From the NCBI GenBank assembly GCA_045561235.1, contig JBJKYB010000002.1:594962-658961 (forward strand): a DNA stretch of 64,000 bases. The letters are read 5' to 3'. Of the stretch, positions 8,799-52,895 are shown in pieces. How positions within the stretch are numbered: the first letter of the stretch is position 1; the number at the start of each line of letters is the position of its first letter. A program made the translations under genes and the position numbers. This DNA is from Gammaproteobacteria bacterium. GTDB taxonomy: Bacteria; Pseudomonadota; Gammaproteobacteria; Poriferisulfidales; GCA-002705445. Below the pieces are notes generated by a model that saw only the letters and a program-made list of their open reading frames with translations, was not told the DNA's origin and did not search any database.

Positions 8799-8848
8799 TT
8801 TAAAATATATCAAATAAAAATAGAATAAACCAGTTTAAAATATCTTTT

Positions 8849-9151
8849 TTAGTTTTCTAGAACGGCGTTTATTTTTTGATGGAGTTCTAAAATTCTTTCT
8901 CTTATTGAGAAATTCAATGTATTAGTAATATCTTTATGGTTCAGAGAATCATTTGCAAAATTTAAAGCTGAAATTACAGCTATTCTGTCCAGGCCAATAG
9001 TCTTTCCTTCCGATTTTGTTTTCATCATCTTATCATTAAGTAACTCAGCAGATTTATATAGATCATCTTTTTCATTCTCTTGGCAAAAAATATCATAATT
9101 CTGATTAAGAATTTTAACTGTTACAGGAATTTTTTTATTTTGATCGTTCAT
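8849..9151 (-). CDS. zapA: Cell division protein ZapA (Z-ring-associated protein).
   Basis: 100 aa. The layout is ZapA-like, with an N-terminal beta region (VTVKILNQNYDI), a GLDRIAVISALN core and a coiled-coil tail. Its position upstream of ssrS and pepP matches the E. coli order ygfB-zapA-ssrS. Confidence 0.7.
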   Translation of the reverse strand: MNDQNKKIPVTVKILNQNYDIFCQENEKDDLYKSAELLNDKMMKTKSEGKTIGLDRIAVISALNFANDSLNHKDITNTLNFSIRERILELHQKINAVLEN

Positions 9152-9423
9152 TGTTGGGTATACTCCAAAGATCTTAATCTGTTTATTATACCTTCAACTT
9201 TATTTTGTACTTTTTGGTTTTTTTCTTTAATTTTAAATTTTTCAGCTACTTCCTGTTCTTGTCTTTCTTTTAATAGTTGATTTTCTTTTTTAAGATCTAA
9301 ATATTTATTAGACAATTCCTCTATTTTGACCTCGAGATCGTCTAACTCTTTATTTAGTGTAGATATTATGTGATCATTATTCATATATAATGTCATACTA
9401 TTATTGCCAGCATTATAGGTCAA
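9148..9423 (-). CDS. zapB: ZapB-like coiled-coil cell division protein (about 90 aa).
   Basis: Heptad-rich sequence (LNKELDDLEVKIEELSNKYLDLKKENQLLKERQEQ) similar to E. coli ZapB. Its stop overlaps the zapA start by 4 nt. Confidence 0.55.
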   Translation of the reverse strand: MTYNAGNNSMTLYMNNDHIISTLNKELDDLEVKIEELSNKYLDLKKENQLLKERQEQEVAEKFKIKEKNQKVQNKVEGIINRLRSLEYTQQ

Positions 9424-9469
9424 TAGATAAATACAAAATAAATAAATATTAATTTTTTGGGCTTCAAAT

Positions 9470-10741: not shown

Positions 10742-10745
10742 TAAA

Positions 10746-11954
10746 ATGCAAAAAAAAAATCATAATATCACTATAATTGGAGCAGGTTTAACAGGACTAG
10801 CGTTTTGTAACTTATTAAAAGAATCAGATACTAATATTCAATTAATAGATAATAATCCAAAAAGTTTCTATAAAAATATTAATATTGATAAACATATAGT
10901 ATTGTCTAACACAAGTAAATTAATCTTAGAGAGCATCAATCTCTGGAACCAGATAAGTCAACATTGCACAAAAATCAAAAATATCCATATATCAAAAAAA
11001 AATATATTTGGTTCAACATTAGTAAAATCGCAAGACGAGAATCTAGAATCGCTTGGATATCAAATACCCATCCGAGAACTCCTTAAGATTTTTCATGAAA
11101 ATATCAAAAATGAATCTAATATTGAAATATTATACGGATCAGAAGTAACTGTTGTAGAACCTGGCGAAGAAGTGAAAATTTCCTTTAAGCATAAATCTGT
11201 TATGAAAGAAATTACAACAAGTTCAGTTATATTTGCTACAGGAGCAACAGACAATTTAGTTGATTCAATATTTACTGAAAAAATACAAAAAATTTATCAA
11301 CAAAAGGCTTTAACTTGCGAGGTAGTATCAGATAAATATAATTGTGAAACAGCATTTGAAAGGTTTACAAATTTAGGAATTTTAGGAGTTATACCAAGAA
11401 AAGAAGGTAATTGGACCTTAATTTATTCAACAAATGAAGATGAATCAGAATTTATTTGTAATTTAGATAATAAAGAAGTAGCTAATTACTTTCAAAAACT
11501 TTTAGGTGAAAAATGTGGAGAAATTGAAGCAGTAAAAAGTATAAATGTCTATTCTCTTAAAATGAAATATCATAAATCTTTCACAAAAGATAACATATGC
11601 TTATTGGGTGATGCAGCACATACGCTTCATCCTATTGCCGCTCAAAGCTTTAATTTATCATTAAGGGATTGTGCATATCTTGCAAGCATGATTAGAAAAA
11701 AAATTATTAATAATGGTAGTTTGTCGAAAATATTTAAAGAATATCACTATAAAAGAGTCAATGAAGTTGAAAGACTTGTCAAATTCACAGATACTCTTGC
11801 CTCTTTTATTCACGGGGGCGGTTTACTTAAAAATAATTTTATTGGTTTATCTTTTTTAATTTTGGATACAAATAAAAAATTAAGAGTAAATATTATTAGA
11901 TATCTATTGGGTGTAAATTTTTCACAATCATTAATCTCAACCTTAAAAGAGTAA
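10746..11954 (+). CDS. ubiH: UbiH/UbiI/Coq6-family FAD-dependent ubiquinone biosynthesis monooxygenase (2-octaprenyl-6-methoxyphenol hydroxylase-like). The track start at 10701 overlaps pepP, so the start at 10746 is preferred.
   Basis: N-terminal Rossmann motif ITIIGAGLTGLA, the DG motif near position 180, and GDAAHTLHPIAAQ(S)FNL (FAD/NAD motif 2 of the UbiH family). Position after pepP matches E. coli. Confidence 0.75.
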   Translation: MQKKNHNITIIGAGLTGLAFCNLLKESDTNIQLIDNNPKSFYKNINIDKHIVLSNTSKLILESINLWNQISQHCTKIKNIHISKKNIFGSTLVKSQDENLESLGYQIPIRELLKIFHENIKNESNIEILYGSEVTVVEPGEEVKISFKHKSVMKEITTSSVIFATGATDNLVDSIFTEKIQKIYQQKALTCEVVSDKYNCETAFERFTNLGILGVIPRKEGNWTLIYSTNEDESEFICNLDNKEVANYFQKLLGEKCGEIEAVKSINVYSLKMKYHKSFTKDNICLLGDAAHTLHPIAAQSFNLSLRDCAYLASMIRKKIINNGSLSKIFKEYHYKRVNEVERLVKFTDTLASFIHGGGLLKNNFIGLSFLILDTNKKLRVNIIRYLLGVNFSQSLISTLKE

Positions 11955-39215: not shown

Positions 39216-40880
39216 ATGAATATGAAGACTTCTGACCTATTTGTTAAGTGTCTTGAAAATGAAGGAATTGAATACATCTTTGGTGTTCCAGGCGAGGAAA
39301 ATGCAGATTTTTTGATGTCTTTGCACGAGTCTAAGAAAATTGAATTCATTTTAACAAGACATGAACAAGGCGCAGCTTTTATGGCTGAGTCATACGGAAA
39401 ATTAACAGGAAAGCTATCTTGTTGTTTAAGTACACTAGGACCAGGCGCTACAAATCTGCTTACTGGTGTTGCAGATGCAAATATGGACCATTCTCCAGTT
39501 TTAGTTATTACAGGACAAGGCTCTTCAGATAGGCTTCATAAAGAGTCGCACCAAATAATGGATGTCTGTCACATGTTTAAATCAGTAACCAAATGGACAA
39601 CCTCGGTAAGAAATCCAGCCACAATCCCTGAAATTATTAGAAAAGCTGTAAGATTGGCAACATTAGAAAAACCTGGTGCAGTACATATTGAATTACCAGA
39701 GGATATTGCAAGATTAGATGTGAAAGCAAAACCTTTAAAATCTTTTCCTTATAGAAGGTCTATTGCCGAGGATAATATTATATATAAAGCATTTAAGTTA
39801 ATGTCTGAAGCAGAATCACCAATACTTATTGCAGGAAATGGAGCTATAAGAAAAAGATCATCAAGACAACTCAGGGAATTTTGTGAACGAACAAATATTC
39901 CTGTTGTAACCACATTTATGGGTAAGGGTGCAGTTAATTGTGAGTCGGATTATTGTTTATCAACAGTTGGATTAGGCGCAATTGATTTTGGAGATATCGC
40001 AATAAAGAATTCAGATCTTGTTATAACGTTAGGATACGATATGGTAGAATACCATCCAAAACTTTGGCGCACTAATTCTTCAGCCAAGATTATTCATATA
40101 GATTTTGAGGCAGCCGAAATAGACGAATATTATATTCCAGAAGTTGAAATTATTGGAGATTTAGCTCACTCCTTATCTGTGTTGAATAAAATAATAGATA
40201 CAGAGGGTATAAAATCCTATGATAATACAAACGTAAAAAAATTAAGAGCTAGTTTAAAAAAAGATAATGAGAATTATAAAGATGATAAATCTATAGGTTT
40301 AATAAAACCACAAAAGTTTTTATATGACTTGAGAAACTTTTTAGGTAAAGATGACATATTAATATCTGACGTTGGTGCACACAAAATGTGGATTGCCAGA
40401 AATTATCCCTGTTATGAGCCAAATACATGCATAATTCCGAATGGGTTTTGCTCGATGGGATATGCATTACCAGCAATAATTTCGGCATCACTAATAAATG
40501 AGAACAGAAAAATTTTTTCAATTTGCGGAGATGCAGGTTTCTTAATGAATCTCCAAGAGATGGAAACCGCTAAAAGGCTTAGCGCAAATTTTGTATTGAT
40601 TGTTTGGGAAGATAAATCCTATGGTTTAATTAAATGGAAGCAGCAAGCACAATTTGGGAAATCAACAGATCTTGATTTTAATAATCCAAATTGGGAAAAA
40701 TTAGCTAAATCTTTTGATTGGAATTATATATTTGAAGATGATAGTTCTAAGATTACAAAAAGCTTAGAAAAAACCAATAATCTTAAAGGTCCAACTTTAT
40801 TTGTTATACCAATAGATTATTCTGAAAATGGGAAGTTAACTAAATTTTTAGATGATTTAGAAAAAAAATATGACACTTAA
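39216..40880 (+). CDS. Thiamine-diphosphate-dependent enzyme of the acetolactate synthase family (catabolic AlsS/AruI-like 2-oxoacid decarboxylase/carboligase).
   Basis: 554 aa. Motifs (I)FGVPGEEN, RHEQGAAFMAESYGKLTGK, LGPGATNL(L)TG, TPP-binding GDAGF...N. Architecture PYR-middle-PP. Confidence 0.8.
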   Translation: MNMKTSDLFVKCLENEGIEYIFGVPGEENADFLMSLHESKKIEFILTRHEQGAAFMAESYGKLTGKLSCCLSTLGPGATNLLTGVADANMDHSPVLVITGQGSSDRLHKESHQIMDVCHMFKSVTKWTTSVRNPATIPEIIRKAVRLATLEKPGAVHIELPEDIARLDVKAKPLKSFPYRRSIAEDNIIYKAFKLMSEAESPILIAGNGAIRKRSSRQLREFCERTNIPVVTTFMGKGAVNCESDYCLSTVGLGAIDFGDIAIKNSDLVITLGYDMVEYHPKLWRTNSSAKIIHIDFEAAEIDEYYIPEVEIIGDLAHSLSVLNKIIDTEGIKSYDNTNVKKLRASLKKDNENYKDDKSIGLIKPQKFLYDLRNFLGKDDILISDVGAHKMWIARNYPCYEPNTCIIPNGFCSMGYALPAIISASLINENRKIFSICGDAGFLMNLQEMETAKRLSANFVLIVWEDKSYGLIKWKQQAQFGKSTDLDFNNPNWEKLAKSFDWNYIFEDDSSKITKSLEKTNNLKGPTLFVIPIDYSENGKLTKFLDDLEKKYDT

Positions 40881-42318
40881 AAAAATTAAAAATATTACCC
40901 CTGTTCAAATTAAAAATCCAAAAACTGTTGATTTAAATTCACCCTGGGATTTAAAAATCGTCGGGCATATAGAGTGCATAGAAAAAAAGCATGTTGATGA
41001 AATACTAAATATAGCGTCAAAAGCTTTTCATAATAAAGCAAAACCTTTAAATAAAATAGAAAGAATAAAGATACTCAAGAAATGTAAAAGTAAGTTAGAA
41101 AAGAATTCACAAAAGTTCTCAAAAATTATTGCGTTAGAGGGTGGAAAACCATTAAAAGATGCAAAAATAGAAGTTGAAAGAGCTATTAATGGAGTTGATC
41201 TTTGTGTCGAAGCATTAAATAAATGCTCTGGGTCAGAAATACCAATGAATATTAGTAATTCATCATTAAACAAGATAGCATTTACAAAAAAATTTCCAAT
41301 TGGGCCAGTATTTGCGGTCAGTGCATTTAATCATCCATTAAATTTGATAGTTCACCAAGTCGGTCCAGCTATAGCTGCAGGATGTCCAGTAATCATAAAA
41401 CCTTCTTTGGATACTCCATTATCTTGTTATGAGTTGATTAAGATATTAATAGAAAGTGGCTTACCCACCGAATTTTGCCAAATGATAAATACTAACGATC
41501 ACATGATTACACAAAAATTTGTGAGTGATCCAAGAATATCCTTTTTTTCTTTTATTGGAAGTGCTGAAGTTGGCTGGAAATTAAAATCTTTATTACCACC
41601 TGGAGCAAAGTGCGCGATGGAACATGGAGGTGTTGGTTCTGTGATATTAGATAAGGATACAAACTTAAAAAATATTTTACCTTCGATTTTGAGGGGTGCA
41701 TTTTATCATGCTGGACAGGTATGTGTTTCAATTCAAAAAGTAATTGTTCACGAAGATTTAGTAGATGAATTTTTAGATTTATTAAAAAAATCAATTAAAA
41801 AATTAAAAGTTGGAAATCCTTCGAATATTAAAACGGATGTTGGGCCATTAATTCGCCCATCGGAGGTTAAAAGAATTGATAGTATTGTAAAAAAATCAAT
41901 AAAAGAGGGAGCTGAAATAATTTGTGGAGGATTTTCTAATAAAGAAACAACTTACGAATGTACAGTTATTAAAAATCCAAAAGATAAGTCGGAAATTAGT
42001 CAAAACGAAATATTTGGGCCAGTATTATGTTTATACGAATTTCGCACTATGGAAGATGCAATAAAAAAAGCAAATAACGAAAAATATGCCTTTCAATCTT
42101 CAGTATATACGCAAAATATTGATACAGCGATGCTTTGTTATGAAAAACTTGACGCAAAAAGCGTCTTTATTAACGAACAAACTGCGTTCAGAGTTGATTG
42201 GATGCCATTTGGAGGAATTAAAAACTCTGGTGAAGGCGTGGGCGGTATAGAATACTCTTTTTCTGATCTATTGTATGATAAACTAATTATTATTAACTCA
42301 AAAAACATAATTTCTTAG
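40870..42318 (+). CDS. NAD(P)+-dependent aldehyde dehydrogenase. Start overlaps the TPP-enzyme stop.
   Basis: 482 aa. Catalytic Cys block (F)YHAGQVCVS, glutamate block (M)EHGG, FGPV(L), (P)FGG(I/V)K.SG.G. Overlaps the previous gene by 11 nt. Confidence 0.85.
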   Translation: MTLKKIKNITPVQIKNPKTVDLNSPWDLKIVGHIECIEKKHVDEILNIASKAFHNKAKPLNKIERIKILKKCKSKLEKNSQKFSKIIALEGGKPLKDAKIEVERAINGVDLCVEALNKCSGSEIPMNISNSSLNKIAFTKKFPIGPVFAVSAFNHPLNLIVHQVGPAIAAGCPVIIKPSLDTPLSCYELIKILIESGLPTEFCQMINTNDHMITQKFVSDPRISFFSFIGSAEVGWKLKSLLPPGAKCAMEHGGVGSVILDKDTNLKNILPSILRGAFYHAGQVCVSIQKVIVHEDLVDEFLDLLKKSIKKLKVGNPSNIKTDVGPLIRPSEVKRIDSIVKKSIKEGAEIICGGFSNKETTYECTVIKNPKDKSEISQNEIFGPVLCLYEFRTMEDAIKKANNEKYAFQSSVYTQNIDTAMLCYEKLDAKSVFINEQTAFRVDWMPFGGIKNSGEGVGGIEYSFSDLLYDKLIIINSKNIIS

Positions 42319-42332
42319 ACTAAAAGGAAAAT

Positions 42333-42998
42333 ATGAAGTATTTATTATTATTTATATATTTTTTGTCATTTAATTTATTCTCAGCGGCTGACGAACCTCA
42401 TCCAATCATAGACTCTAATTACATTTCAAAATATTCATATGATTTAGAGACTATGAATATCGAGGAATTAGAAGAAACAAAATTAACCTTAAAAAATTAT
42501 CTTAAAAATAATAATCATAAAGATACATATTCGGACAATACTGCTAAAGAGGAATTACTTGTTGCCTTATTAGAATATGATGATGTAAGAATACAAATTA
42601 CAGATGTTATCGACGAAGTAATAAACGAATATAAAGTTGAAGAAGATGTTAAAAATATATTACTTAGTTTCAAGAGCACTTTTGAAAATATCATTAAAGA
42701 TAATAGGCATCTTGTAAAAAATTTAAGAGATTATAAGGCATATGATTTTCGTTTAGGTTCAGCATATTTAGCAATGATGAGTGCTTTTCATGAAACTGAA
42801 GAAAGTAGAAAGTTTTATTCAAGGTTAGTACAAGATAAAAAAGATGACAAAACAAGCATTGGGCGATACAACAAAAAATTAAAATTATCTCAAGAAAATA
42901 TTAATTTAGTTAAAAAAGAAATAGAAAAACATTCAGAAATATCAGATGTAAAAAAAGTACTAGCAAAAATTGAAAAAGAAATTCTGTCAAGGGAATGA
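42333..42998 (+). CDS. Hypothetical secreted protein (signal peptide, then an acidic helical region).
   Basis: N-terminal MKYLLLFIYFLSFNLFSAAD signal. 14-nt gap after the ALDH gene. I recognise no family. Confidence 0.5.
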   Translation: MKYLLLFIYFLSFNLFSAADEPHPIIDSNYISKYSYDLETMNIEELEETKLTLKNYLKNNNHKDTYSDNTAKEELLVALLEYDDVRIQITDVIDEVINEYKVEEDVKNILLSFKSTFENIIKDNRHLVKNLRDYKAYDFRLGSAYLAMMSAFHETEESRKFYSRLVQDKKDDKTSIGRYNKKLKLSQENINLVKKEIEKHSEISDVKKVLAKIEKEILSRE

Positions 42999-43048: not shown

Positions 43049-44020
43049 TTATACTACTCTATCACCTGGTTCTTTATTGTTATAAAAAGCTTCCATATTT
43101 TCCAATACCCTCATTCCCATAGCGATTCTTGTCTCTATAGAGGCACTACCTAAATGCGGAAGTAATACAGCATTTTCACAATCTAAAAAACCTGGATTAA
43201 GTTCTGGCTCACCTTCGAATACGTCAAGGCCTGCTCCAGCAATTGTTTTATTTTTCAAAGCTTCGATCAATGCATCATTATCTATAACATCTCCTCTGGC
43301 AGAATTTATTAGATAAGCTCCTTTTTTCATCATTCCAATTCTTTCTTTATTCATTAAATGATATGTGCTTTCTCCACCAGGACAGTGAATAGAAACAAAA
43401 TCAGCTTTCTCTAGCACTTCTTCTACACTTGAGCATGGTGTTGCATCATATTTTTTAATTACCTCATCTGATGGCATGTATGGGTCGGAGAATATAATTT
43501 TCATCCCAAATCCAAAATGTGCTCTATCAGCAGTTGCTTGAGCTATTCTTCCAAAGCCAATACAACCCAATGTTTTTCCAGTTACTTGTGTGCCCCTAAG
43601 ATGTGTTGGTCTCCATCCAGCCCATTTACCAGCTCTTAACTCTCTCTCACCTTCACTTGTTCTTCTAGCTGCGGCTAATAATAACGTCATGGCTATGTCC
43701 GCCGTACAATCCGTTAAAACTTCAGGAGTATTTGTAACAACTAAATTTTCTTTTTTTGCAGCATTTAAGTCTATATGATTAAAACCCACTCCAAAACTAG
43801 CAATAATTTTTGCTTTTTTATTTTCTACTGATAGAACTTCCTCATTTATAGGATCTGTAACAGTAGGACAAACGCAATCATAGTTTTGAAAAGCTGATTG
43901 AAGTTCAGCAATACTCATAGGGACGTCTTTTTCATTTAGTGTTACGTCATATTTTTCTTTTAATTCTGCTTCAACTTCAGCAGGCCATTTTCTTGTTACT
44001 AATACTGTTGGTTTACTCAT
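43049..44020 (-). CDS. hprA: Hydroxypyruvate reductase / glycerate dehydrogenase (D-isomer-specific 2-hydroxyacid dehydrogenase), serine-cycle HprA-like.
   Basis: 323 aa. N-terminal (V)LVTRKWP, NAD-binding G.GRIG, catalytic R/E/H blocks (N.ARG..(I/V)D, HLGSA). Last gene of the sga-mcl-mtkAB cluster. Confidence 0.8.
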   Translation of the reverse strand: MSKPTVLVTRKWPAEVEAELKEKYDVTLNEKDVPMSIAELQSAFQNYDCVCPTVTDPINEEVLSVENKKAKIIASFGVGFNHIDLNAAKKENLVVTNTPEVLTDCTADIAMTLLLAAARRTSEGERELRAGKWAGWRPTHLRGTQVTGKTLGCIGFGRIAQATADRAHFGFGMKIIFSDPYMPSDEVIKKYDATPCSSVEEVLEKADFVSIHCPGGESTYHLMNKERIGMMKKGAYLINSARGDVIDNDALIEALKNKTIAGAGLDVFEGEPELNPGFLDCENAVLLPHLGSASIETRIAMGMRVLENMEAFYNNKEPGDRVV

Positions 44021-44038
44021 CTCTTTCCTCGACTATAT

Positions 44039-44929
44039 TTATAAATTTTTATTTATTACTTCTTTCATTGTGCTACCCATCTCAGAAGGATTTGGAATTA
44101 TATGAATTCCAGCTTCTTTTAGTAACTCAACTTTTTCTGCTGCACTTTCACCTTTGCCTGAAACAATTGCACCAGCATGACCCATTCTTCTTCCTTTTGG
44201 TGCCGTTAAACCAGCTATATATGCAGCAACCGGCTTTTTCATATATTTTTCAACATATTCAGCAGCCTCAGCTTCTTGTGGACCGCCAATTTCTCCAATT
44301 ATCATTACAGCTTTTGTTTTTTCATCTTCATTAAATAACTCAAGTATATCTTTATGAGAGCTTCCATTAATAGGATCTCCACCAATACCTACACTCGTAG
44401 AAATACCAATACCCTCTGATTTCATTTGTGAGGCCGCTTCATAACCTAGCGTTCCTGATCTGCCAATAACACCTACCTCCCCAGGCATATATATGTGGCC
44501 TGGCATGATGCCAATCATCGCTTCCCCTGGTGTTATAGTTCCAGCACAATTTGGACCAGTCAGAATCATTCTGTCTTCTTTTTTATATCTAAGCATATAT
44601 CTTTTAACTTTTATCATATCATGTGCAGGGATTCCGTCAGTAATTGAGACAGCATATTTAATTCCTGCATCTGCAGCTTCCATAATACCATCAGCCGCAG
44701 CCGCAGCAGGAACAAAAACTATAGTTGCTTCAGCGCCAGTGGCATCTACAGCCTCTTTAACAGTATTGAATACGGGTTTATTTAAATGAGTTGTACCACC
44801 TTTTCCTGGTGTTACTCCTGCAACAACATTAGTCCCATATGCAATCATTTCTTCAGCATGGAAATTACCTATTCTTCCAGTAATTCCCTGAACTAAAACT
44901 TTTGTATTTTTATTTAATAAAACTGACAT
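44039..44929 (-). CDS. mtkB: Malate--CoA ligase (malate thiokinase) alpha subunit, SucD-like.
   Basis: 296 aa. CoA-binding VLVQGITG, phosphohistidine loop (M)GHAGAI. Assigned as MtkB rather than SucD because it sits between mcl/sga and hprA with no sucAB nearby. Confidence 0.75.
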   Translation of the reverse strand: MSVLLNKNTKVLVQGITGRIGNFHAEEMIAYGTNVVAGVTPGKGGTTHLNKPVFNTVKEAVDATGAEATIVFVPAAAAADGIMEAADAGIKYAVSITDGIPAHDMIKVKRYMLRYKKEDRMILTGPNCAGTITPGEAMIGIMPGHIYMPGEVGVIGRSGTLGYEAASQMKSEGIGISTSVGIGGDPINGSSHKDILELFNEDEKTKAVMIIGEIGGPQEAEAAEYVEKYMKKPVAAYIAGLTAPKGRRMGHAGAIVSGKGESAAEKVELLKEAGIHIIPNPSEMGSTMKEVINKNL

Positions 44930-44943
44930 TATCTTCCCCTTAA

Positions 44944-46107
44944 TTATTGTTTAGCAGCATCAACAGCCTTTTGTGCTGCATCTTTTAAAGTGTCGGCTAG
45001 AATTATGGGAAGCCCACTTTCTTTTACAATTTTTATACCTTCTTCTACATTTGTTCCTGATAATCGAACTATTAAAGGAATTTTTAAATCTACTTTAGGA
45101 ATAACTTGAACTAGACCCTCAGCAATCCAATCGCATCTGTTAATACCTGCATAAACATTTACAAGCATTGCTTTTACTTTTTTATCAGCTAGGACCAATT
45201 CAAATGCTTTACCAACTCTTTCTGGAGAAGCCCCACCTCCTATGTCCAAAAAGTTTGCAGGTTCGCCACCACAATATTTTATCATGTCCATTGAAGCCAT
45301 TGCCAAACCAGCACCGTTAATAATACAGCCAATGTCACCATCCAAACCAACATAACTGAGATCATGCTCTTTAGCCGCTACTTCTCTTGGATCTTTTTGA
45401 GAATTATCATTAAGAGAATCAATTTCAGGATGTTTAAATAAAGCGTTGTCATCAAAGCTAACTTTTGCATCAAGTGCAATAAGATTATTATCTTTTGTCA
45501 AAACTAATGGATTTATTTCTAGCATATTCATATCTAAATTAGTCATAGCTTTATAGCAACCCATTAATAATTTAACCGCTTTTCCAAGTGCTTCTTTAGG
45601 AAGATTAAGTGCAAAACTTAATTCTCTTGCTTGAAAACCTGTAAGTCCTACTACGGGGTCAATTTCAATTTTTTTAATAGAATCAGGTTTTTCTACTGCA
45701 AGTTCTTCTATTGACATACCACCTTCGGCTGAAGCGACAATAACAATTCTTTGTGATGCTCGGTCCATTACAAATGCTAAATAAATCTCCCTGTCGATAT
45801 CACAACCGGATTCAATATAGAGTTTTTCAATTAACTTCCCTTCGTCACCAGTTTGAATAGTTTTTAAATAAGTGCCAAAAAGTTTCTCAGATGCAGCTTT
45901 AACTTCCTCATCAGATTTACAGAGAACTATACCTCCAGCTTTACCTCTTGCACCAGAATGAACTTGTGCTTTTACAACACATAAATCTGTTCTTAATTTT
46001 TTAAATGCATCGACAGCTTCTGTGGAGTTGTGTGCTAGCTCACCTGCTAAAATTTGAACTCCATAATTTGATAATATTTCTTTCGCTTGATATTCGTGTA
46101 TATCCAA
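44944..46107 (-). CDS. mtkA: Malate--CoA ligase beta subunit, SucC-like (ATP-grasp).
   Basis: 387 aa. N-terminal MDIHEYQAKE(I)L, ATP-grasp and ligase-CoA domains. Context as for mtkB. Confidence 0.75.
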   Translation of the reverse strand: MDIHEYQAKEILSNYGVQILAGELAHNSTEAVDAFKKLRTDLCVVKAQVHSGARGKAGGIVLCKSDEEVKAASEKLFGTYLKTIQTGDEGKLIEKLYIESGCDIDREIYLAFVMDRASQRIVIVASAEGGMSIEELAVEKPDSIKKIEIDPVVGLTGFQARELSFALNLPKEALGKAVKLLMGCYKAMTNLDMNMLEINPLVLTKDNNLIALDAKVSFDDNALFKHPEIDSLNDNSQKDPREVAAKEHDLSYVGLDGDIGCIINGAGLAMASMDMIKYCGGEPANFLDIGGGASPERVGKAFELVLADKKVKAMLVNVYAGINRCDWIAEGLVQVIPKVDLKIPLIVRLSGTNVEEGIKIVKESGLPIILADTLKDAAQKAVDAAKQ

Positions 46108-46122
46108 AACAGTTCCCCTATA

Positions 46123-47070
46123 TTATTTTTTTGCATTAATTGCTTTATCGGTTTCAACAATGTTTTCAGCCATCTTTGCTGATGCTGCATCTATTAGTCT
46201 TCCATCTAATGAGGCGGCTCCTTGGCCAGCTTTTGCAGCTTCGTCTAAAGCTATTAAAATTCTTTTCGCTTTATCGACCTCCGCTGGTGGAGGTGTAAAT
46301 ACTTCATTCGCAAGCTCGATTTGTGAAGGGTGAATAGCCCATTTCCCCTCATATCCGAGAGCAGCAGCTCTTTTAGCAGCCAGCGTATAACTTTCTGGAT
46401 CTTTAAAATCTCCAAATGGCCCATCTATTGCTCTTAGACCATATGCTCTACACGCTACTAACATTTGTGATAAACCAGCATGCCATTGGTCTCCAGGATA
46501 ATCTGGATTTAGACCACCTATCACTGTGGTTCTTGCTCTACAGCTTGCTGCATAATCAGCAACCCCAAAATGCATAGCTTCTAATCTCTCTTCACGTCCA
46601 GATTTGGCTATGTCCATAACATTAGCCATACCAAGAGTTGTTTCAATTAAAATTTCTATTCCAATACGTTTTTTTAAGCCTTTAGAAGTTTCAATTTGAT
46701 TAAGGAGTGCTGACAACATATAAATATCGGAGGGTGTTCCAGCTTTTGGAAGCAATATAGTGTCAAGATGCTCACCAGCCTGCTCGACTACCTCGATTAC
46801 GTCTCGATACATATAATGTGTGTCAATACTATTAATTCGAACGGAAATAGTTTTTCCATTTCCTTGCCAATCAAGATCTTGAAGAGCTTCAATAACATTT
46901 TTTCTTGCAGTTACTTTATCATCTGGCGCTACTGCATCTTCTAAATCTAAAAAAACAAAATCAACATCACTGTTTAATGCTTTTTCAAACATTTTTGGGT
47001 TTGACCCAGGAACTGCAAGTTCGCTTCTCTGAACTCTTCTAGAAGTTTGTTCATAAATTTTATGGCTCAT
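46123..47070 (-). CDS. mcl: L-malyl-CoA/beta-methylmalyl-CoA lyase (HpcH/HpaI / CitE-like aldolase family).
   Basis: 315 aa. Family motifs RSELAVPG, DLEDAV, GIEILIET. Adjacent to mtkAB and sga as in methylotroph serine-cycle clusters. Confidence 0.8.
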   Translation of the reverse strand: MSHKIYEQTSRRVQRSELAVPGSNPKMFEKALNSDVDFVFLDLEDAVAPDDKVTARKNVIEALQDLDWQGNGKTISVRINSIDTHYMYRDVIEVVEQAGEHLDTILLPKAGTPSDIYMLSALLNQIETSKGLKKRIGIEILIETTLGMANVMDIAKSGREERLEAMHFGVADYAASCRARTTVIGGLNPDYPGDQWHAGLSQMLVACRAYGLRAIDGPFGDFKDPESYTLAAKRAAALGYEGKWAIHPSQIELANEVFTPPPAEVDKAKRILIALDEAAKAGQGAASLDGRLIDAASAKMAENIVETDKAINAKK

Positions 47071-47092
47071 TTTTTATCCTTTTTTAATTTTT

Positions 47093-48331
47093 TTATTTTT
47101 TCTTTTTCTTTTTCTTTGTTTTATCAGGATTACTTGTCCAATATTTTGCTGCAGCACCTGTACCACTTCCTGGTGTGAATTTAATGCCAGCATCAATCAT
47201 TGCCATTTCTACTCCACCAAGAGCAGCCATCATCCTTGCCTCGTTATTATCACCAAGATGCCCAATTCTAAAAACTTTACCAGCTACTTGAGTAAGCCCA
47301 GCACCCAAAGAAATATTATATCTATGATATGCAATGTTAATTACCTCGATAGCTTTTTTCCCGTCTGGGTTATTTTTAGATCCTGGTTCAAGCCAGATTG
47401 CGCTAACCGTATCTGATTGCCACTTTGGAGATGAAGCTGCCAGTTTTAATCCCCAAGCTTTTATTGCAGCGCGGACTCCACTAGCCAGTCTTTTGTGTCG
47501 ATAAAATACGTTCTCCATTCCTTCCTCAAGTAAAAGATCTATTGCTACTCTTAATCCTCTAAGTAAGTTAACTGGTGGTGTATATGGAAAAAAACCATCT
47601 TTATTTGTGTTTAAATGATCTTGTATATCTAGGAAACACCTCTTACATTTAGCCGTCTTTCTCATTGCAAGAGCTTTCTTACTAAAACACAGAATTGCTA
47701 AACCCGCCGGCAGCATAAAACCCTTTTGAGATCCACTTACTGCTATATCAACTTTCCACTTATCAAATCTAAATTCAACACTTGCAATCGAACTTACACC
47801 ATCAACCATTAATAAAGCTGGATGTTTAACTTGATCCATTGCTTTTCTTAATCCGGCAATATCACTTGTCACGCCTGTAGCAGTTTCATTGTGACAAACC
47901 ACAACTGCTTTAATTTTTTTATCTTTATCTTTTGCTAAAGCCTTTTTGAATTTTTCAATTTCTATACCATTACCCCATTTTGTATCAATTAGTTCTACAT
48001 CAAGACCAATTCGTTTGGCCAAGTCATACCAAAGATGACTAAATTGACCAAATCTTGAAGTAAGAATTTTATCGCCCGGTGATAGAGTATTTGCTAGTGC
48101 AACTTCCCAGCCTGCTGTTCCAGTTGCGGGAAAAATGAAAGGTGTTCCAGTTTTTGTCAGAAGTACTTTTTTTAAGTCTCTTAAAATTGGTTTTACAAGC
48201 TCAGGGAAGTCAGGAGCTCTATGATCTTCCATCGGGACGTTCATTGCATTTTGAACTACTGTTGGAATATGTGTTGGTCCAGGAGCAAATAAATAGTTTC
48301 TTCCAGGGAATGATAATTTTTGGCCAGGCAT
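47093..48331 (-). CDS. sga: Serine--glyoxylate aminotransferase (class V aminotransferase) with an unusual C-terminal poly-lysine tail (...PDKTKKKKKKK).
   Basis: 412 aa. N-terminus LFAPGPT.IP, PLP-Lys block SGSQKG(F)M.P(A)GL. The K-tail is encoded by the A-rich tract at 47096-47120. Confidence 0.85.
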   Translation of the reverse strand: MPGQKLSFPGRNYLFAPGPTHIPTVVQNAMNVPMEDHRAPDFPELVKPILRDLKKVLLTKTGTPFIFPATGTAGWEVALANTLSPGDKILTSRFGQFSHLWYDLAKRIGLDVELIDTKWGNGIEIEKFKKALAKDKDKKIKAVVVCHNETATGVTSDIAGLRKAMDQVKHPALLMVDGVSSIASVEFRFDKWKVDIAVSGSQKGFMLPAGLAILCFSKKALAMRKTAKCKRCFLDIQDHLNTNKDGFFPYTPPVNLLRGLRVAIDLLLEEGMENVFYRHKRLASGVRAAIKAWGLKLAASSPKWQSDTVSAIWLEPGSKNNPDGKKAIEVINIAYHRYNISLGAGLTQVAGKVFRIGHLGDNNEARMMAALGGVEMAMIDAGIKFTPGSGTGAAAKYWTSNPDKTKKKKKKK

Positions 48332-48464
48332 AATATTTTCCTATAAGTTGTTAAATTCGTTGTATTTTAATTAAATCCATATTTTATTAAAATGAATAAG
48401 GCGTAAATAATGCCATAGCATCTTGTGAGGCTCAACCTTTAATTATTGCTAATATAGATTCTAC

Positions 48465-49334
48465 TTAATTAGAGATTATACCTTGAAGTTCCGCAGCTTT
48501 CATAGTGTTTTCAAGGAGGCATGCAACTGTCATGGGTCCAGTTCCACCTGGCATTGGAGTTACTGCTTTAGCAATTCCATCAACAGAATCGAAATCAACA
48601 TCACCATGGATGCCTTTATCGTCACTACTTATTCCAACATCAAGTAAAATAGCGCCTTTCTTTACATTTTTCGAATTAATTATGCCTGGAACACCAATAG
48701 CAGGCACGACAATTTCAGATTCTGAAATTAAATCATCTAGATTTTTTGTTCTAGAGTGAGCTAGGGTAACAGTACAATCAATACCTTTAGATCCAAACAT
48801 TATAACTTGTGGCATACCGACAAGTCTTGATCTTCCAATTACTAATGCTTTTTTTCCAGATGTTTCCAAATCATAATATTCTATAAGTCTCATAACCCCA
48901 AGTGGAGTGCATGGCCTTAAAACATCATTTCCAACAATTAATTTACCAAGATTTTGTTCTTTAAGACCATCAACATCTTTATTTGTTGGAATCATTTCAA
49001 TTACGCTGTCTTCATTTAATCCCTTTGGCAAAGGCATTTGTATAAGAATTCCATTAATAGTAGGGTCATTTCCAAGCTCAGATATCTTTTGTTCTAATTC
49101 AGATTGAGATATATTCCCAGGAAGATTTACATGCATTGATTTAATTGATGATGCTGTTGCCTGTTTATGCTTATTATTTACATAAAGTTGACTTGGTTTA
49201 TCATCTCCAACTAAAACCGTTGCAAGGGTTATTTCTGAGCCTGAATCTTCTATTTTTTTCTTTATTGAACTTTGAATTTCTTGCGCAACAAATCTTCCAT
49301 CCAATATCAAAGTTCCTTTTTCTGTATATTTCAT
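48465..49334 (-). CDS. folD: Bifunctional 5,10-methylene-THF dehydrogenase / 5,10-methenyl-THF cyclohydrolase.
   Basis: 289 aa. Motifs (K)DVDG, TPLG, VIGRS..VG.P, TV..HS.T, (P)VPGGVGPMTVA.L(L)ENT. Confidence 0.9.
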   Translation of the reverse strand: MKYTEKGTLILDGRFVAQEIQSSIKKKIEDSGSEITLATVLVGDDKPSQLYVNNKHKQATASSIKSMHVNLPGNISQSELEQKISELGNDPTINGILIQMPLPKGLNEDSVIEMIPTNKDVDGLKEQNLGKLIVGNDVLRPCTPLGVMRLIEYYDLETSGKKALVIGRSRLVGMPQVIMFGSKGIDCTVTLAHSRTKNLDDLISESEIVVPAIGVPGIINSKNVKKGAILLDVGISSDDKGIHGDVDFDSVDGIAKAVTPMPGGTGPMTVACLLENTMKAAELQGIISN

Positions 49335-49360
49335 ATTTATTTAATAATTATTTATTTTTT

Positions 49361-50284
49361 CTAAACTTTTGGTTGTTTGTCAGGGTGAAGATAAATAAAG
49401 CTTTTACCGAGTTTTCCATTGTAGTTGCCAGCAGAAATCATTAATAAATCATCGGTATCTTTTGATGCTGCAATTGCTGCTTGAGTTGCTGTTATTATAG
49501 ATTCCATATCCTTACCATTCATAATTATTTCCATTACAGAATTAACTCCTTCAGGTAAAGCGCCTTCTACACCAGGATTATCCTGAAGCAAAGGGCAAAA
49601 TTTTTCATATGTGCTAGCAATAGTAAAATCATAATCACTTCCAGCTTTAGAACCACTTCCAGCTATTCCGCCAGGAAATGTAGTAATAACATTTGGTATT
49701 GGTAAAATAGCTTCAACACCTTTTTCAGCGGCCTCTAATGCAGACTCTGTATTTTTCCCAAAATACCAGAGGTTTCCACCCATAAGACCATCTGAGTAAC
49801 CAAGTCTTCTGTCAATAACAAACTCGCCCCCTAATATAGGTATCCACCACATTTTTCTTCCATACCTTTCGATTCTTTTTTGATACTTATTCCCAAAAAA
49901 AGCAACTTTTTTTCCTAATTTGAAATATGATTCGCTATCTTCCATTAGGTTGAAGCACGATGCAGTAGGACATGTAAGTATATTTTGACTTATTCTTACT
50001 AGAGCAGCCTTTTCTAATTTTTTTGGATCTTTCCAAAATTTTGGAATATGCAATTGTATAATTGCTCCCGGTCTATTATCAGGTGTTGAAACACTTTCGT
50101 CGCCACCAGGACCAACGTATCTGTCTAAACCAGCTTCGCAGTCACATAATATACTGCTTGAAGCATTACCTGTCGCTGCGTTAATTGCATGGTCAAGCCA
50201 CTTTTTATTAATTGCTGTAATTAAAACCTCAGAATACATACTTTTAAAAGCTTCTGCATATGTATCATCTATAATTGCACTCAT
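49361..50284 (-). CDS. Ftr/FhcD-like formyltransferase (formylmethanofuran--tetrahydromethanopterin N-formyltransferase family homologue) with no neighbouring Fhc/H4MPT genes.
   Basis: 307 aa. Blocks that match my memory of archaeal Ftr: N-terminal IDDTYAEAF...VLITA, ITTFPGGIAGSGSKAGS, YEKFCP, ISAGNYNGKLGKSFIYLH (Ftr: ITSFPGGIVASGSKVG..., EKFC, ISAGNYGGKLGK.KFYLH). Recalled from memory, not searched. Confidence 0.6.
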   Translation of the reverse strand: MSAIIDDTYAEAFKSMYSEVLITAINKKWLDHAINAATGNASSSILCDCEAGLDRYVGPGGDESVSTPDNRPGAIIQLHIPKFWKDPKKLEKAALVRISQNILTCPTASCFNLMEDSESYFKLGKKVAFFGNKYQKRIERYGRKMWWIPILGGEFVIDRRLGYSDGLMGGNLWYFGKNTESALEAAEKGVEAILPIPNVITTFPGGIAGSGSKAGSDYDFTIASTYEKFCPLLQDNPGVEGALPEGVNSVMEIIMNGKDMESIITATQAAIAASKDTDDLLMISAGNYNGKLGKSFIYLHPDKQPKV

Positions 50285-50286
50285 GT

Positions 50287-50919
50287 TTAACCTCTTCCTT
50301 TTCCTTCATAAACATTTGATTCAGTGACTACTTTATCCATATATACATCATGAGGAGCAACTAAAATTTCGTCGAATAGTTGTGATTCATAACATAAGGC
50401 TATCAAAGAACAGTCCGGTCTTACTTGTTCCATTGTTCTATCATAATAACCCTGGCCATTTCCCATTCTCCCACCACTTCTATCAAAACCAGTACCTGGA
50501 ACCATTATCATGTCTAGTTCTTGAGGTGTGACTTCTTTATCTGGATTACCCCATAGCTCTTTTGGTGGTTCTAAAATATTCCATTTTCCTACCACCATCT
50601 CCTCTAAGCTAGACATATGCCACAGCCCAAGCTTATTTTCTCCGTTTTCATCTTCAGTACAGTACGGGACGATAATTTTCTTTTCGCCTTTCTCAACTTC
50701 TTTAATTAAATGTGGTTTTGTTCTTGTTTCAGATCTGCAGTCTATGTACCACATTATTACTTGCGCCTCTTTATATTCTTGAAGTGACATAAATCTTTCA
50801 CAAGCACTAGCGCTAACCTCATCTTTATTTTCTTGAGCGGCTCTTCTGTCATATGCTTCTCTTCGCATACCAGACTTTTTCTCCATAATTTTTTCTAATT
50901 CTTCTTTAGATATTGACAT
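50287..50919 (-). CDS. ygfA: 5-formyltetrahydrofolate cyclo-ligase (MTHFS; YgfA-like).
   Basis: 210 aa. C-terminal GxGxGYYDR signature (GNGQGYYDRT) and (M)(V)PG.GFD..G.R(M/L)G motif. First gene of the minus-strand C1 operon. Confidence 0.8.
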   Translation of the reverse strand: MSISKEELEKIMEKKSGMRREAYDRRAAQENKDEVSASACERFMSLQEYKEAQVIMWYIDCRSETRTKPHLIKEVEKGEKKIIVPYCTEDENGENKLGLWHMSSLEEMVVGKWNILEPPKELWGNPDKEVTPQELDMIMVPGTGFDRSGGRMGNGQGYYDRTMEQVRPDCSLIALCYESQLFDEILVAPHDVYMDKVVTESNVYEGKGRG

Positions 50920-51061
50920 CTTTTGTTCTCCTGGCTTAATCTTTTAATTCTGAATAAACATTTATTATTCTATAGTTTTAAGTAAACAGCTATCTATTTT
51001 TTATTTGATTTCAAAAATAATGTAGAAAAACCAAAAAAATTACTCATTCTAAGCAAATAAA

Positions 51062-51156: not shown

Positions 51157-52575
51157 ATGAATTATTTGCCATTATTTGTAGATACATCTGGCAAAAAATG
51201 TTTGGTCGTTGGCGGCGGTAACGTTGCCAGTAGAAAGTTAATTCCAATTCTCAAATCAGATATGGATGTTAATTTAGTTGCCCCAGAAATTAACGAAGAT
51301 ATCTGCGAATTAGCTGAAAATTATAAAAATCTCATTCTTGAGAAAAGAAAATTTGAAAAAAAAGATATTGATAATCAGTTTCTTGTTTTAGCAACTACGA
51401 ATGATACGAATATAAACTCTTTAATAGCAAAATTAGCTAAGGAAAAAAATATATTAGTTAATATGGCCGAAGACGCATTGACTGGAGATACTTTGATACC
51501 TTCTGTAGTAGACAGAAATCCAATAAAAATAGCCATATCTTCAGGTGCAGCATCACCAATTTTAACAAGATTAGTCAAAACAAAATTAGAAACTGTTATA
51601 CCTTATTCATTTAGCAAATTAGCTGAGGTGATGATGGATTATAGGAGTAAGGTTAAGGAACGTTTTATAAATATAAAAGACAGAAGAGCTTTTTGGGAAA
51701 TATTCCTAGATGGCCCTTTATCTGAAATGGTCTTATCGGGGCATTTGGATAAAGCAAAAAAAGCATTAGATAAATCCTTAGAAGAAAAAGTAGCTTTTCA
51801 GAGCCAAGGCGAAGTGTACCTTGTTGGAGCAGGTCCAGGAGATCCAGAATTATTAAGCTTTAAAGCACTTAGACTAATGCAGAGAGCGGATGTTGTTATT
51901 TATGACAGATTAGTTTCAGAACCTATTATGAATTTATTGCGCCAAGATGCTGAAAAAATATATGTAGGAAAACAAAGAGCTGATCATGCTATGCCTCAGG
52001 AAAATATTAATGAGCTTCTTGCTCGTCTAGCATTAGAAGGGAAAAAAGTATTAAGATTAAAAGGAGGAGACCCTTTTATCTTTGGAAGAGGTGGTGAGGA
52101 AATTGAAAGTTTAATAAATGACGATATACCATTTCAAATAGTCCCTGGAATAACTGCTGCATCAGGATGCGCAAGCTATGCTGGTATTCCATTAACCCAT
52201 AGAGATTATTCGCAAGCATGTATTTTTGTTACAGGACATTTAAGAGATGGAACTGTAAATCTAAATTGGGAGATGTTGGCTCACGAAAAGCAGACTTTAG
52301 TTTTTTATATGGGAATGCATGGTTCGAAAATTATATGCGAAGAATTAATAAAACATGGGTTAAAAAAAACCACGCCGGCAGCTCTTATTGTAAAAGGCAC
52401 AACGACTGATCAGGAGGTAATAATTGGAGACTTATCAAATATGCCAAAAATAATTCAAGAAAATAAAATTATTCCACCAACATTACTAATAATTGGAGAT
52501 GTGGTAAAACTTCATAACAAGTTAAAATGGTTTGATCCTTTTAAAATGCATGGTAAGAAAAATTTACTTTTTTAG
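51157..52575 (+). CDS. cysG: Siroheme synthase (precorrin-2 dehydrogenase / sirohydrochlorin ferrochelatase / uroporphyrinogen-III C-methyltransferase).
   Basis: 472 aa. N-terminal MNYLPLFVD...[12 protein letters not shown] (E. coli MDHLPIFCQL...CLIVGGGDVAERK) and C-terminal SUMT motifs (V)YLVGAGPGD, (L)[14 protein letters not shown]. Confidence 0.9.
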
Positions 52576-52895
52576 TTTTCTAATAACTTGTCAAGCTGTT
52601 TGCTAATATTATCTGCGTACTCTTTTTGTAAATTTTTCTTTCTAATTTCTCTTCTAGTAAAATTAAATTTAACTTTTTCTTTAATATCATCTTTATTTTG
52701 ACTTACCTTTATCATTTTTATGCAGTCGGTAGGACATTTTTTTATACATATTTTACAACCAGGGCATTCATTAAAATTTATTCTATGTGAGAAATTTTGC
52801 GCGCCAATAATTGCATCAAACGGACATACTTCTATACAAATTGCACACCCAATACAATTGTCTTCATTTATATATGCTACTTGCCTTTCAATCAT
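52572..52895 (-). CDS. Free-standing 2x[4Fe-4S] ferredoxin homologous to the C-terminal domain of RnfB. Translationally coupled to metG (ATGA overlap).
   Basis: 107 aa. [19 protein letters not shown] and [16 protein letters not shown] match the RnfB C-terminus (CIGCTKCIQACPVDAIVGA...C.GC.LC...CP(T).CI) as recalled. The RnfB N-terminal membrane anchor and Fe-S domain are absent. Confidence 0.7.

Follow-up and report, generated by a model that had tools for sequence, protein, structure and literature searches.

In Methylobacterium (Methylorubrum) extorquens AM1, the genes of the serine cycle lie together in the qsc cluster, whose order we take to be sga-hprA-mtdA-fch-mtkA-mtkB-ppc-mcl. Here we describe a comparable cluster of eight genes in a 64,000-nucleotide stretch of DNA from an uncultured gammaproteobacterium (contig JBJKYB010000002.1, positions 594,962 to 658,961); this whole stretch is called the window below. 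Like qsc, the cluster brings serine-glyoxylate aminotransferase (SGAT), a probable hydroxypyruvate reductase (HPR), malate thiokinase (MtkAB) and malyl-CoA lyase (Mcl) together with genes for pterin-dependent one-carbon (C1) interconversion, and in relatives with larger genomes ppc belongs to the cluster as well. Compared with qsc, the gene order is different, FolD stands in place of MtdA and Fch, and 5-formyltetrahydrofolate cyclo-ligase (MTHFS) and an Ftr protein of the archaeal/planctomycete type are found at the cluster head. The window has no ppc, no LysR-type regulator gene is adjacent to the cluster, and the host is a gammaproteobacterium with a guanine-plus-cytosine (GC) content of about 30%.

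The serine cycle is a known kind of pathway, and there are earlier reports of it from nearby lineages. IMCC57338, the first cultured member of UBA868 (Arenicellales), was reported to have a complete serine pathway and methylated-amine oxidation; its KEGG module M00346 is 100% complete, and it has separate sucCD and mtkAB genes (bioRxiv 10.64898/2026.04.01.715867). In Candidatus (Ca.) Taurinisymbion ianthellae, a sponge symbiont from the same order as UBA868, the Mcl and Hpr proteins were detected (bioRxiv 10.1101/2022.09.23.509140). Both are marine gammaproteobacteria of the wider clade that bears the same cluster. However, neither paper mentions Ftr or MTHFS, both genomes list fhs, and in Ca. 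Taurinisymbion metY, not ftr/folD, is upstream of the aminotransferase gene. The GC content is also different, about 30% in the lineage of the window and 49% in these genomes. What is new here, and not described before, is a predicted serine cycle in this AT-rich lineage and with this cluster architecture.

A third comparison is with TMED127/Methylaequorales, an alphaproteobacterial group with a 45-kb island that contains xoxF, pyrroloquinoline quinone genes and the full tetrahydromethanopterin (H4MPT) pathway (PMC12542740). These are also small-genome, oligotrophic ocean bacteria with a predicted serine cycle. In contrast, the window has no such island. TMED127 was rejected as the source because the group is alphaproteobacterial, whereas the flanks in the window are gammaproteobacterial (lptD-surA-pdxA-rsmA-apaG-apaH, zapA-ssrS).

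The eight-gene cluster and its probable serine-cycle enzymes

Families were assigned by profile search with NCBIfam (TIGR and NF) models and their curated cut-offs and with Pfam domains, and the closest solved structures were compared by bit score. The eight genes follow one another on the minus strand at 43049-50919, with gaps of 2, 26, 133, 22, 15, 14 and 18 nt in the order of transcription. A sequence-only reading of the window had reported eight co-oriented, closely packed genes at this place and named them ygfA, ftr, folD, sga, mcl, mtkA, mtkB and hprA. Its coordinates and strand agree exactly with the open reading frames (ORFs), and its gene identities are backed by the profile and structure matches. 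No paralogue of any cluster gene was found elsewhere in the 64-kb window. In the order of transcription, the genes are as follows.

50287-50919, minus strand: 5-formyltetrahydrofolate cyclo-ligase of the MTHFS/ygfA family, 210 aa (TIGR02727, 128 bits, cut-off 84.9; PF01812)
49361-50284, minus strand: Ftr/FhcD-like protein, formylmethanofuran:tetrahydromethanopterin formyltransferase family, 307 aa (PF01913 and PF02741; NF002554; TIGR03119)
48465-49334, minus strand: FolD, bifunctional methylene-tetrahydrofolate (THF) dehydrogenase/methenyl-THF cyclohydrolase, 289 aa (PF00763 and PF02882)
47093-48331, minus strand: class-V aminotransferase of the serine-glyoxylate aminotransferase type (sga), 412 aa (PF00266)
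46123-47070, minus strand: malyl-CoA lyase (Mcl), HpcH/CitE family, 315 aa (PF03328)
44944-46107, minus strand: malate-CoA ligase (malate thiokinase) beta subunit, MtkA, 387 aa, TTG start (NF010647)
44039-44929, minus strand: malate-CoA ligase alpha subunit, MtkB (SucD family), 296 aa (NF004230; CoA_binding and Ligase_CoA domains)
43049-44020, minus strand: hydroxypyruvate/glyoxylate reductase, HprA-like D-2-hydroxyacid dehydrogenase, 323 aa (PF00389 and PF02826)

The serine-cycle reading of this cluster is well supported by the family matches. The full length of Mcl aligns with the malyl-CoA lyase of M. extorquens (5UGR; 403 bits). The score drops to 289 bits with Rhodobacter sphaeroides Mcl and to 114 bits or less with CitE-like proteins. 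The best solved relative of the aminotransferase is serine-glyoxylate aminotransferase 6PK1 (424 bits), compared with 148 bits for AGXT. By bit score, then, the citE-like and agxt-like paralogues that the sequence-only reading had warned of do not account for these two proteins. MtkA passes the malate-CoA ligase model NF010647 (620.8 bits, cut-off 604) and scores 529.4 bits on the SucC model; its relatives in the PDB are SucC proteins only, the best at 406 bits. MtkB matches the SucD model NF004230 (420.9 bits), and its partner gene and context suggest that it is the malate-CoA ligase alpha subunit. The closest solved relatives of the HprA-like protein are glyoxylate reductase 2DBQ (231 bits) and Hyphomicrobium D-glycerate dehydrogenase 1GDH (218 bits), at similar distances; Hyphomicrobium is itself a serine-cycle methylotroph. 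This protein is under every NCBIfam equivalog cut-off, and gene context points to hydroxypyruvate as its likely substrate.

The best NCBIfam model for the aminotransferase is BhcA of the beta-hydroxyaspartate cycle, at 560 bits, below the cut-off of 650. Both types of enzyme aminate glyoxylate. Unlike BhcA, the aminotransferase has mcl, mtkAB and hprA as neighbors, and bhcB, bhcC and bhcD were not found in or near the cluster.

We scanned a collection with one genome per species using the Ftr-like protein of the window and obtained 71 loci (labelled L0xx). Thirteen low-GC loci (31-34% GC) from close relatives share the order of all eight genes; they are from marine metagenome-assembled genomes (MAGs) and single-amplified genomes (SAGs) labelled "Thiothrix sp." or "Gammaproteobacteria bacterium". 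In most of these, cysG and metG flank one side, and a gene for a 221-aa protein, an aldehyde dehydrogenase gene and a thiamine pyrophosphate (TPP) enzyme gene flank the other; in L013 the latter set is on the opposite side of the cluster. A further 14 loci with 41-63% GC, from Arenicellales-type MAGs and SAGs with names such as Ca. Oxydemutatoraceae, Thiotrichales and Chromatiales, also have all eight genes in this order, and others end at contig edges. The gene order is thus found in at least 27 gammaproteobacterial loci from 31 to 63% GC. Carriers of the cluster include the 1.1-Mb contig JAYQIN010000002.1 from the low-GC lineage and the closed Arenicellales-type chromosomes OZ243040.1, OX638335.1, CP070821.1, OZ245760.1 and OY843752.1; SAGs AG-447-N20 and AH-287-I11 and HARO18-2 scaffold_96 are further members of the low-GC lineage. 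The sequence-only reading had called the trait non-standard for E. coli-like Gammaproteobacteria; in this gammaproteobacterial clade it is standard and not an oddity of one genome.

The phosphoenolpyruvate (PEP) carboxylase gene ppc (PF00311, 802 bits; about 925 aa, with a GGDRDGNP motif) comes directly after hprA in 17-18 loci, among them 17 of the 19 with sufficient downstream sequence (L018, L020, L021, L023, L026, L027, L030, L035, L036, L039, L042-L046, L049 and L051). These higher-GC relatives have a nine-gene cluster, and ppc has been lost or moved in the lineage of the window. PEP carboxylase catalyses the carboxylation in the serine cycle, and the M. extorquens cluster contains ppc as well. 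The serine-cycle signature set claimed from sequence alone is borne out by the Mcl, aminotransferase and MtkA matches, by the conserved order and by ppc in relatives.

Compared with four low-GC relatives, synonymous divergence (dS) is about equal in the cluster and its flanks (roughly 1-1.7, saturated). Nonsynonymous divergence (dN) ranges from 0.008 to 0.10 for cluster genes and from 0.10 to 0.42 for cysG, metG and other flanking genes; cluster dN is 3-10 times lower than that of metG or cysG. The resulting dN/dS is 0.006-0.08 in the cluster, with MTHFS and Ftr included, and 0.035-0.17 in the flanks. Between the higher-GC loci and the lineage of the window, MTHFS and Ftr are the best conserved cluster proteins (75-82% identity), compared with about 53% for FolD and about 62% for MtkA. 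The flanking genes are plainly gammaproteobacterial: lptD-surA-pdxA-rsmA-apaG-apaH, lgt-thyA-folA, zapA-6S RNA, cysG and metG-apbC-dcd, and rpoN with lptC and the neighboring ABC-transporter ATPase gene is also among the gammaproteobacterial genes of the window. These comparisons support a cluster that is native, vertically inherited and under strong purifying selection.

Taken as a whole, the cluster is probably a native, vertically inherited carbon-assimilation module, arranged as two adjacent units, in an uncultured low-GC marine gammaproteobacterium. In the proposed pathway, the aminotransferase would convert serine and glyoxylate to hydroxypyruvate and glycine, and HprA would reduce hydroxypyruvate to glycerate. 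MtkAB would spend ATP to convert malate to malyl-CoA, which Mcl would split into glyoxylate and acetyl-CoA. The first unit, MTHFS-ftr-folD, would serve the pterin-bound C1 pool that feeds serine hydroxymethyltransferase (SHMT): FolD would interconvert formyl-, methenyl- and methylene-THF, MTHFS would return the SHMT-inhibiting 5-formyl-THF to the active pool, and the Ftr-like enzyme would move a formyl group onto or off the N5 atom of a pterin. The rest of the genome would have to supply GlyA, glycerate kinase, enolase, PEP carboxylase, malate dehydrogenase, a route of glyoxylate regeneration and the primary source of C1 units. We infer the substrate specificities, the direction of flux, the net assimilation of C1 units (plus CO2) and the Ftr cofactor from this arrangement, and the host would then be a methylotroph.

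The exact Ftr protein of the window occurs in 76 blocks of marine metagenome assemblies, TARA samples among them. Exact proteins of the organism are present in many ocean metagenome assemblies, and the lineage is ecologically widespread. If the proposed pathway is correct, a widespread AT-rich gammaproteobacterial lineage would join the few marine bacteria that build biomass from C1 units and do not only burn them. This bears on the marine fate of methylamines, methanol, formate and demethylation products.

The Ftr-like formyltransferase and the adjacent MTHFS

The Ftr-like protein passes two curated models, NF002554 (318.8 bits, cut-off 297) and TIGR03119 (298.8 bits, cut-off 292.6). Like FhcABCD of methylotrophs and the stand-alone Ftr of methanogens, it has the fold families of both Ftr lobes and every invariant residue. 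However, archaeal Ftr structures are its nearer relatives, with scores of 215-220 bits and about 43% identity; the proteobacterial FhcD of M. extorquens scores 158 bits. Its nearest relatives beyond the gammaproteobacterial clade are planctomycete proteins with 56-72% identity, and the next nearest are encoded by archaeal Ftr genes within Mtd-Ftr-FwdDBAC loci. All 16 family-invariant residues are present, and the catalytic Glu is among them (E252, equivalent to E245 of Methanopyrus kandleri). An oxyanion-stabilising Glu is one of the invariant residues of Ftr (PMC6926001). The gammaproteobacterial and planctomycete proteins form a clade with two replacements, Arg to Glu at M. kandleri position 22 and Asn to Tyr at position 224 (E19 and Y226 in the window); at least 85% of the remaining Ftr/FhcD sequences have Arg and Asn there. 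The dN/dS of the gene is about 0.03. The Ftr of the window differs from FhcABCD and methanogen Ftr in these two replacements, which are specific to its clade and change positions that are otherwise conserved, in the absence of nearby fhcABC or fwd genes, and in its setting between two folate enzymes, with translational coupling to MTHFS and with FolD next in line.

MTHFS matches solved MTHFS structures with E=6e-18 and has the GxGxGYYDR motif in the form GNGQGYYDR; its dN/dS is 0.009-0.027. The gene ends 2 nt ahead of the Ftr start. FolD scores up to 292 bits on FolD NCBIfam models, all under their lineage-specific cut-offs. MTHFS is immediately upstream of Ftr in every untruncated gammaproteobacterial locus and upstream of Ftr in most planctomycete loci, the exceptions being L052, L054, L064 and L072. 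The MTHFS proteins of the two phyla are unusually alike (43-70% identity). Since the MTHFS proteins are akin across both phyla and the pair is adjacent, MTHFS and Ftr have travelled together. As far as could be found, this conserved MTHFS-Ftr(-FolD) unit is undescribed.

The trio also occurs on its own. L014 (Ca. Oxydemutatoraceae, 9369-11822) and L031 (Ca. Porisulfidus, 9366-11807) have MTHFS-Ftr-FolD as a self-contained unit, with ilvD on one side (and DUF4396 in L031). The other side has ligA, zipA and a GmrSD nuclease in L031; in L014 it carries an HTH gene together with genes for an AAA ATPase and a DNA methylase. No serine-cycle gene was found within 10 kb of these two trios.

In L053 (9374-11672), from a MAG labelled Methylococcaceae UBA2778, MTHFS-Ftr is followed by mfnB, the gene for 4-(hydroxymethyl)-2-furancarboxaldehyde phosphate (4-HFC-P) synthase of methanofuran synthesis. 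The context of this locus is genuinely gammaproteobacterial (ppk/ppx ... era-rnc-lepB-lepA-rseB-rseA).

In E. coli and in the window alike, zapA (8849-9151, minus strand) is followed by 6S RNA (8618-8799, minus strand), and in the window no ygfA/MTHFS gene comes after them. An AT-rich gap and a 118-aa ORF without family match (7755-8111, minus strand) take up this place. No MTHFS remnant was detectable at the zapA-ssrS site, and the cluster copy is the only MTHFS in the window. Because the ygfA position downstream of zapA-ssrS is empty, the cluster MTHFS may be the only one in the genome.

Partner genes of Ftr were searched in several ways. By tblastn with archaeal Mtd and FwdABCD and gammaproteobacterial MfnB against the window and 82 loci, nothing was found outside the source loci. 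Mch, Mtd, Fae, FhcABC/Fwd and other H4MPT/methanofuran partner genes were absent from the window and from within 10 kb of Ftr in 70 related loci, with the exception of mfnB in L053, which is the sole methanofuran link found. A homologue search with this MfnB gave Methylococcales-type proteins; the best 120 matches included none on chromosome-sized, Ftr-bearing contigs, which is weak evidence, and the single candidate, about 2 Mb in size, proved to be another locus. With Mch of a Phycisphaeraceae locus as the query there were only 11 close matches, and scanning metagenomes with the Mch alignment yielded 2 loci; like those for Fwd/Fhc, Mtd and MfnB, these searches did not extend to the genome behind the window or to the closed chromosomes with the cluster. 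In the literature, we found no paper that links MTHFS to methanopterin or Ftr, and neither the UBA868 nor the Taurinisymbion paper, supplements included, lists ftr, mch or methanofuran modules.

Two explanations of the Ftr-like protein were compared. According to the first, which comes close to an even chance, it is an ordinary FhcD/Ftr of H4MPT/methanofuran-linked formaldehyde oxidation. In that case fae, mtdB, mch, fhcABC and the cofactor synthesis genes would be elsewhere in the genome, and its place beside MTHFS and FolD would be mere co-regulation of C1 genes. The curated FhcD and Ftr cut-offs, which it passes, and the 16 of 16 invariant residues with the catalytic Glu are what such an enzyme would have, and mfnB follows MTHFS-Ftr in the gammaproteobacterial context of L053. 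The nearest non-gammaproteobacterial relatives (56-72%) are from planctomycetes, a phylum that holds the H4MPT pathway (PMC5020050), and streamlined marine methylotrophs of about 1.5 Mb can keep a whole H4MPT island, as in TMED127 (PMC12542740). Yet Fwd/Fhc, Mtd and MfnB are missing within 10 kb of Ftr in the other gammaproteobacterial and planctomycete loci as well as in the 64-kb window, the Ftr-bearing, chromosome-sized contigs lack MfnB among those best 120 matches (again weak evidence), and L014 and L031 carry the MTHFS-Ftr-FolD trio by itself. A further point against an ordinary FhcD is MTHFS, for which we know of no role with H4MPT.

The second explanation starts from the chemistry of the enzyme. 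Ftr gives an N5-formyl pterin, and with H4MPT the 5-formyl form is converted by Mch without ATP. Conceivably, but with low probability, the Ftr-like enzyme here loads formyl onto N5 of THF instead of H4MPT, with MTHFS as its obligatory partner. The coupling of Ftr and MTHFS and their co-inheritance across phyla would then be explained because 5-formyl-THF is a thermodynamic dead end that only the ATP-dependent MTHFS reopens. The route drawn from this idea would run from a formyl donor to 5-formyl-THF, methenyl-THF and methylene-THF by way of Ftr, MTHFS and FolD, and it is equally doubtful. Candidates for the formyl donor are formyl-methanofuran or another N-formyl compound. It is likewise only a tentative suggestion that the trio takes the place of formate-THF ligase, Fch and MtdA as the entry to the serine cycle, perhaps even in genomes without H4MPT. 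A folate-directed N5-formyltransferase would need the arrangement seen here, an Ftr tied to MTHFS with FolD next; the trio is also placed where M. extorquens has mtdA-fch. Both published Arenicellales genomes list fhs, and ftr is not reported in either paper; this fits fhs and Ftr as alternative routes, although two cases are anecdotal. The probability that remains beyond these two explanations belongs to some other or unknown role of Ftr.

The MTHFS-Ftr(-FolD) unit would mark either an overlooked H4MPT/methanofuran pathway or a folate-directed use of an enzyme family tied to methanopterin. If the folate-directed use is true, the reading of "ftr" matches in metagenomes changes.

Alternative readings of the cluster

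Several points weigh against C1 assimilation by the serine cycle. No glyA, glycerate kinase gene, ppc, eno or mdh was found within the 64-kb window, and the same is true of isocitrate lyase, ethylmalonyl-CoA genes and C1-oxidation or demethylation genes. The sequence-only reading had already placed the first five and primary C1 oxidation outside the window, and none of them is among its genes. It had also called the module complete; the enzymes specific to the cycle are indeed all present, but with glyA, glycerate kinase, ppc, eno and mdh missing from the 64 kb the word does not apply to the pathway. HprA, the aminotransferase and MtkB score below equivalog-level cut-offs, and their specificities are assigned by context. 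The Ftr-like gene, for which the sequence-only reading gave no explanation, is the unusual member of the cluster. Finally, the enzymes of the cluster could serve glyoxylate/glycolate or other two-carbon (C2) metabolism without methylotrophy.

This last possibility, in which the module handles glyoxylate, glycolate and C2 compounds and the organism does not grow on C1 substrates, is unlikely on present evidence but a serious rival to assimilation. Glyoxylate would be aminated to glycine, glycine cleavage and SHMT would give serine, and the aminotransferase and HprA would lead to glycerate in a photorespiration-like manner. MtkAB and Mcl would interconvert malate and acetyl-CoA plus glyoxylate, and C1 units would come from glycine and serine only. 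Glycolate is a major algal exudate of the surface ocean. The lack of a primary C1-oxidation gene in the window agrees with such a role, glyoxylate is also a substrate of HprA-type enzymes (the top solved relatives here are glyoxylate reductases), the aminotransferase scores 560 bits on the model of glyoxylate-aminating BhcA, and the related isolate has part of the KEGG photorespiration module. However, an ATP-spending malate thiokinase beside Mcl, joined by ppc in relatives, fits the cyclic serine pathway better. The formyl/methenyl/methylene-pterin module MTHFS-Ftr-FolD at the cluster head and the methylated-amine oxidation that relatives pair with the cluster also argue for C1 assimilation.

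The cluster region has 36.1% GC and its genes 34.1-38.7%, compared with a mean of 28.9% (standard deviation 3.3) for the other 50 ORFs and 29.9% for the window. The rise over the surroundings reported by the sequence-only reading is therefore real, but its by-eye figure of 40-45% was too high and the bump is smaller than claimed. By codon position, the cluster and the other ORFs have 50.6 and 37.8% (GC1), 38.7 and 29.6% (GC2), and 20.2 and 19.4% (GC3), so that the excess is confined to positions 1 and 2. Gly, Ala, Arg and Pro (GARP) make up 26.2% of residues in the cluster and 16.5% elsewhere in the window; FYMINK residues make up 29.0 and 38.5%. The 133-nt folD-sga spacer has 24.8% GC. Both the AT-rich spacer and third positions and the explanation of the bump by the residue composition of conserved enzymes, as proposed from sequence alone, stand on these values. 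At 39.9% GC, groEL is above every cluster gene, and the effect is not peculiar to the cluster.

The relative synonymous codon usage (RSCU) of the cluster correlates with that of the rest of the window at r=0.97. The mean RSCU difference of the cluster is 0.142, compared with 0.102 ± 0.014 in random 8-gene subsets, none of which surpassed it among 500. This small but significant shift favors codons that end in T (CTT, GGT, GCT, TAT, ATT), with GC3 unchanged. High-expression codon bias is unsupported as its source because the shift is unlike that of groEL (r=0.12).

Because GC3 is equal, RSCU correlates at 0.97, the flanks are syntenic and dS is the same as in the flanks, the data support amino-acid composition, not recent transfer, as the origin of the GC rise. 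It is very improbable that the higher GC reflects a recent genomic island with an alphaproteobacterial methylotroph or a planctomycete as its donor. In its favor are the GC difference itself (36.1 and 28.9%), the RSCU difference above all 500 random subsets and the clear kinship of Ftr and MTHFS with planctomycete genes. However, the codon shift is to T-endings and not to GC, the extra GC at positions 1 and 2 follows the GARP content, and synteny of the flanks extends to 13 relatives. No tRNA genes, integrases or repeats were found at the cluster borders. Any transfer of Ftr-MTHFS would be older than the split of lineages that are now at 31-63% GC.

It is still less credible that mtkAB is the organism's succinyl-CoA synthetase (sucCD) in a chance neighborhood of central metabolism, a possibility raised by the sequence-only reading and by the SucD and SucC matches of the alpha and beta subunits, since the beta subunit is above the equivalog cut-off for malate-CoA ligase, scores 91 bits more on that model than on the SucC model and is beside mcl in at least 27 loci, sucAB and lpd were not found nearby, and the related isolate IMCC57338 has both K01902/K01903 and K14067/K08692.

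Promoter-like elements and neighboring loci

Two promoter-like elements precede the genes of the cluster.

50967-50996, minus strand: promoter-like element P1 upstream of MTHFS, TAGATA-18 nt-TAGAAT (consensus match only)
48407-48435, minus strand: promoter-like element P_sga in the 133-nt folD-sga spacer, TTGAGC-17 nt-TGGCATTAT, extended -10 (spacer alignment)

Upstream of MTHFS, the block AATAGATAGCTGTTT..AAACTATAGAATAATAAA is conserved in low-GC relatives, and Arenicellales-type loci have TTGGCA-17-TAGGAT at the place equivalent to P1. In the spacer alignment, the core of P_sga is conserved among low-GC relatives. Beyond these, nearly all gammaproteobacterial loci from 31 to 63% GC (L001-L051) have CTTGAG-N17/18-TGGCAnnAT ahead of the aminotransferase gene. 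We read P_sga as a predicted sigma-70 promoter with an extended -10 element. A sigma-54 promoter (GG-N10-GC) in the spacer was rejected, because the -35 TTGAG and the spacing of 17-18 nt are conserved and the -12 element is poor. Since conserved promoter-like elements precede both MTHFS and sga, the cluster probably forms two transcription units, MTHFS-ftr-folD and sga-mcl-mtkAB-hprA, with predicted starts near 50960 and 48400. No intrinsic terminator was predicted on the coding strand of the cluster. No Rfam family matched in the cluster even at E<=1, and 6S RNA was the only one found elsewhere in the window.

The conservation of P_sga in sequence and spacing, as TTGAG(C/G)-17/18 nt-TGGCAnnAT, is unusually deep for a non-coding site. 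A regulator-binding site may overlie it: the window has an ATGC-N4-GCAT dyad, and L011 has a perfect dyad of 7 bp.

At 39216-42998 on the plus strand, convergent with hprA, are genes for a TPP enzyme, an aldehyde dehydrogenase and a 221-aa protein without family, in this order. The TPP enzyme passes the PRK08322 "acetolactate synthase large subunit" model with 688 bits (cut-off 509). The best model for the aldehyde dehydrogenase is lactaldehyde dehydrogenase, under the cut-off. On the other side, between metG and cysG, a 107-aa ferredoxin-like ORF (52572-52895, minus strand) matches only the C-terminal Fe-S part of RnfB/RsxB. No other rnf genes are nearby, and the ORF is conserved in relatives.

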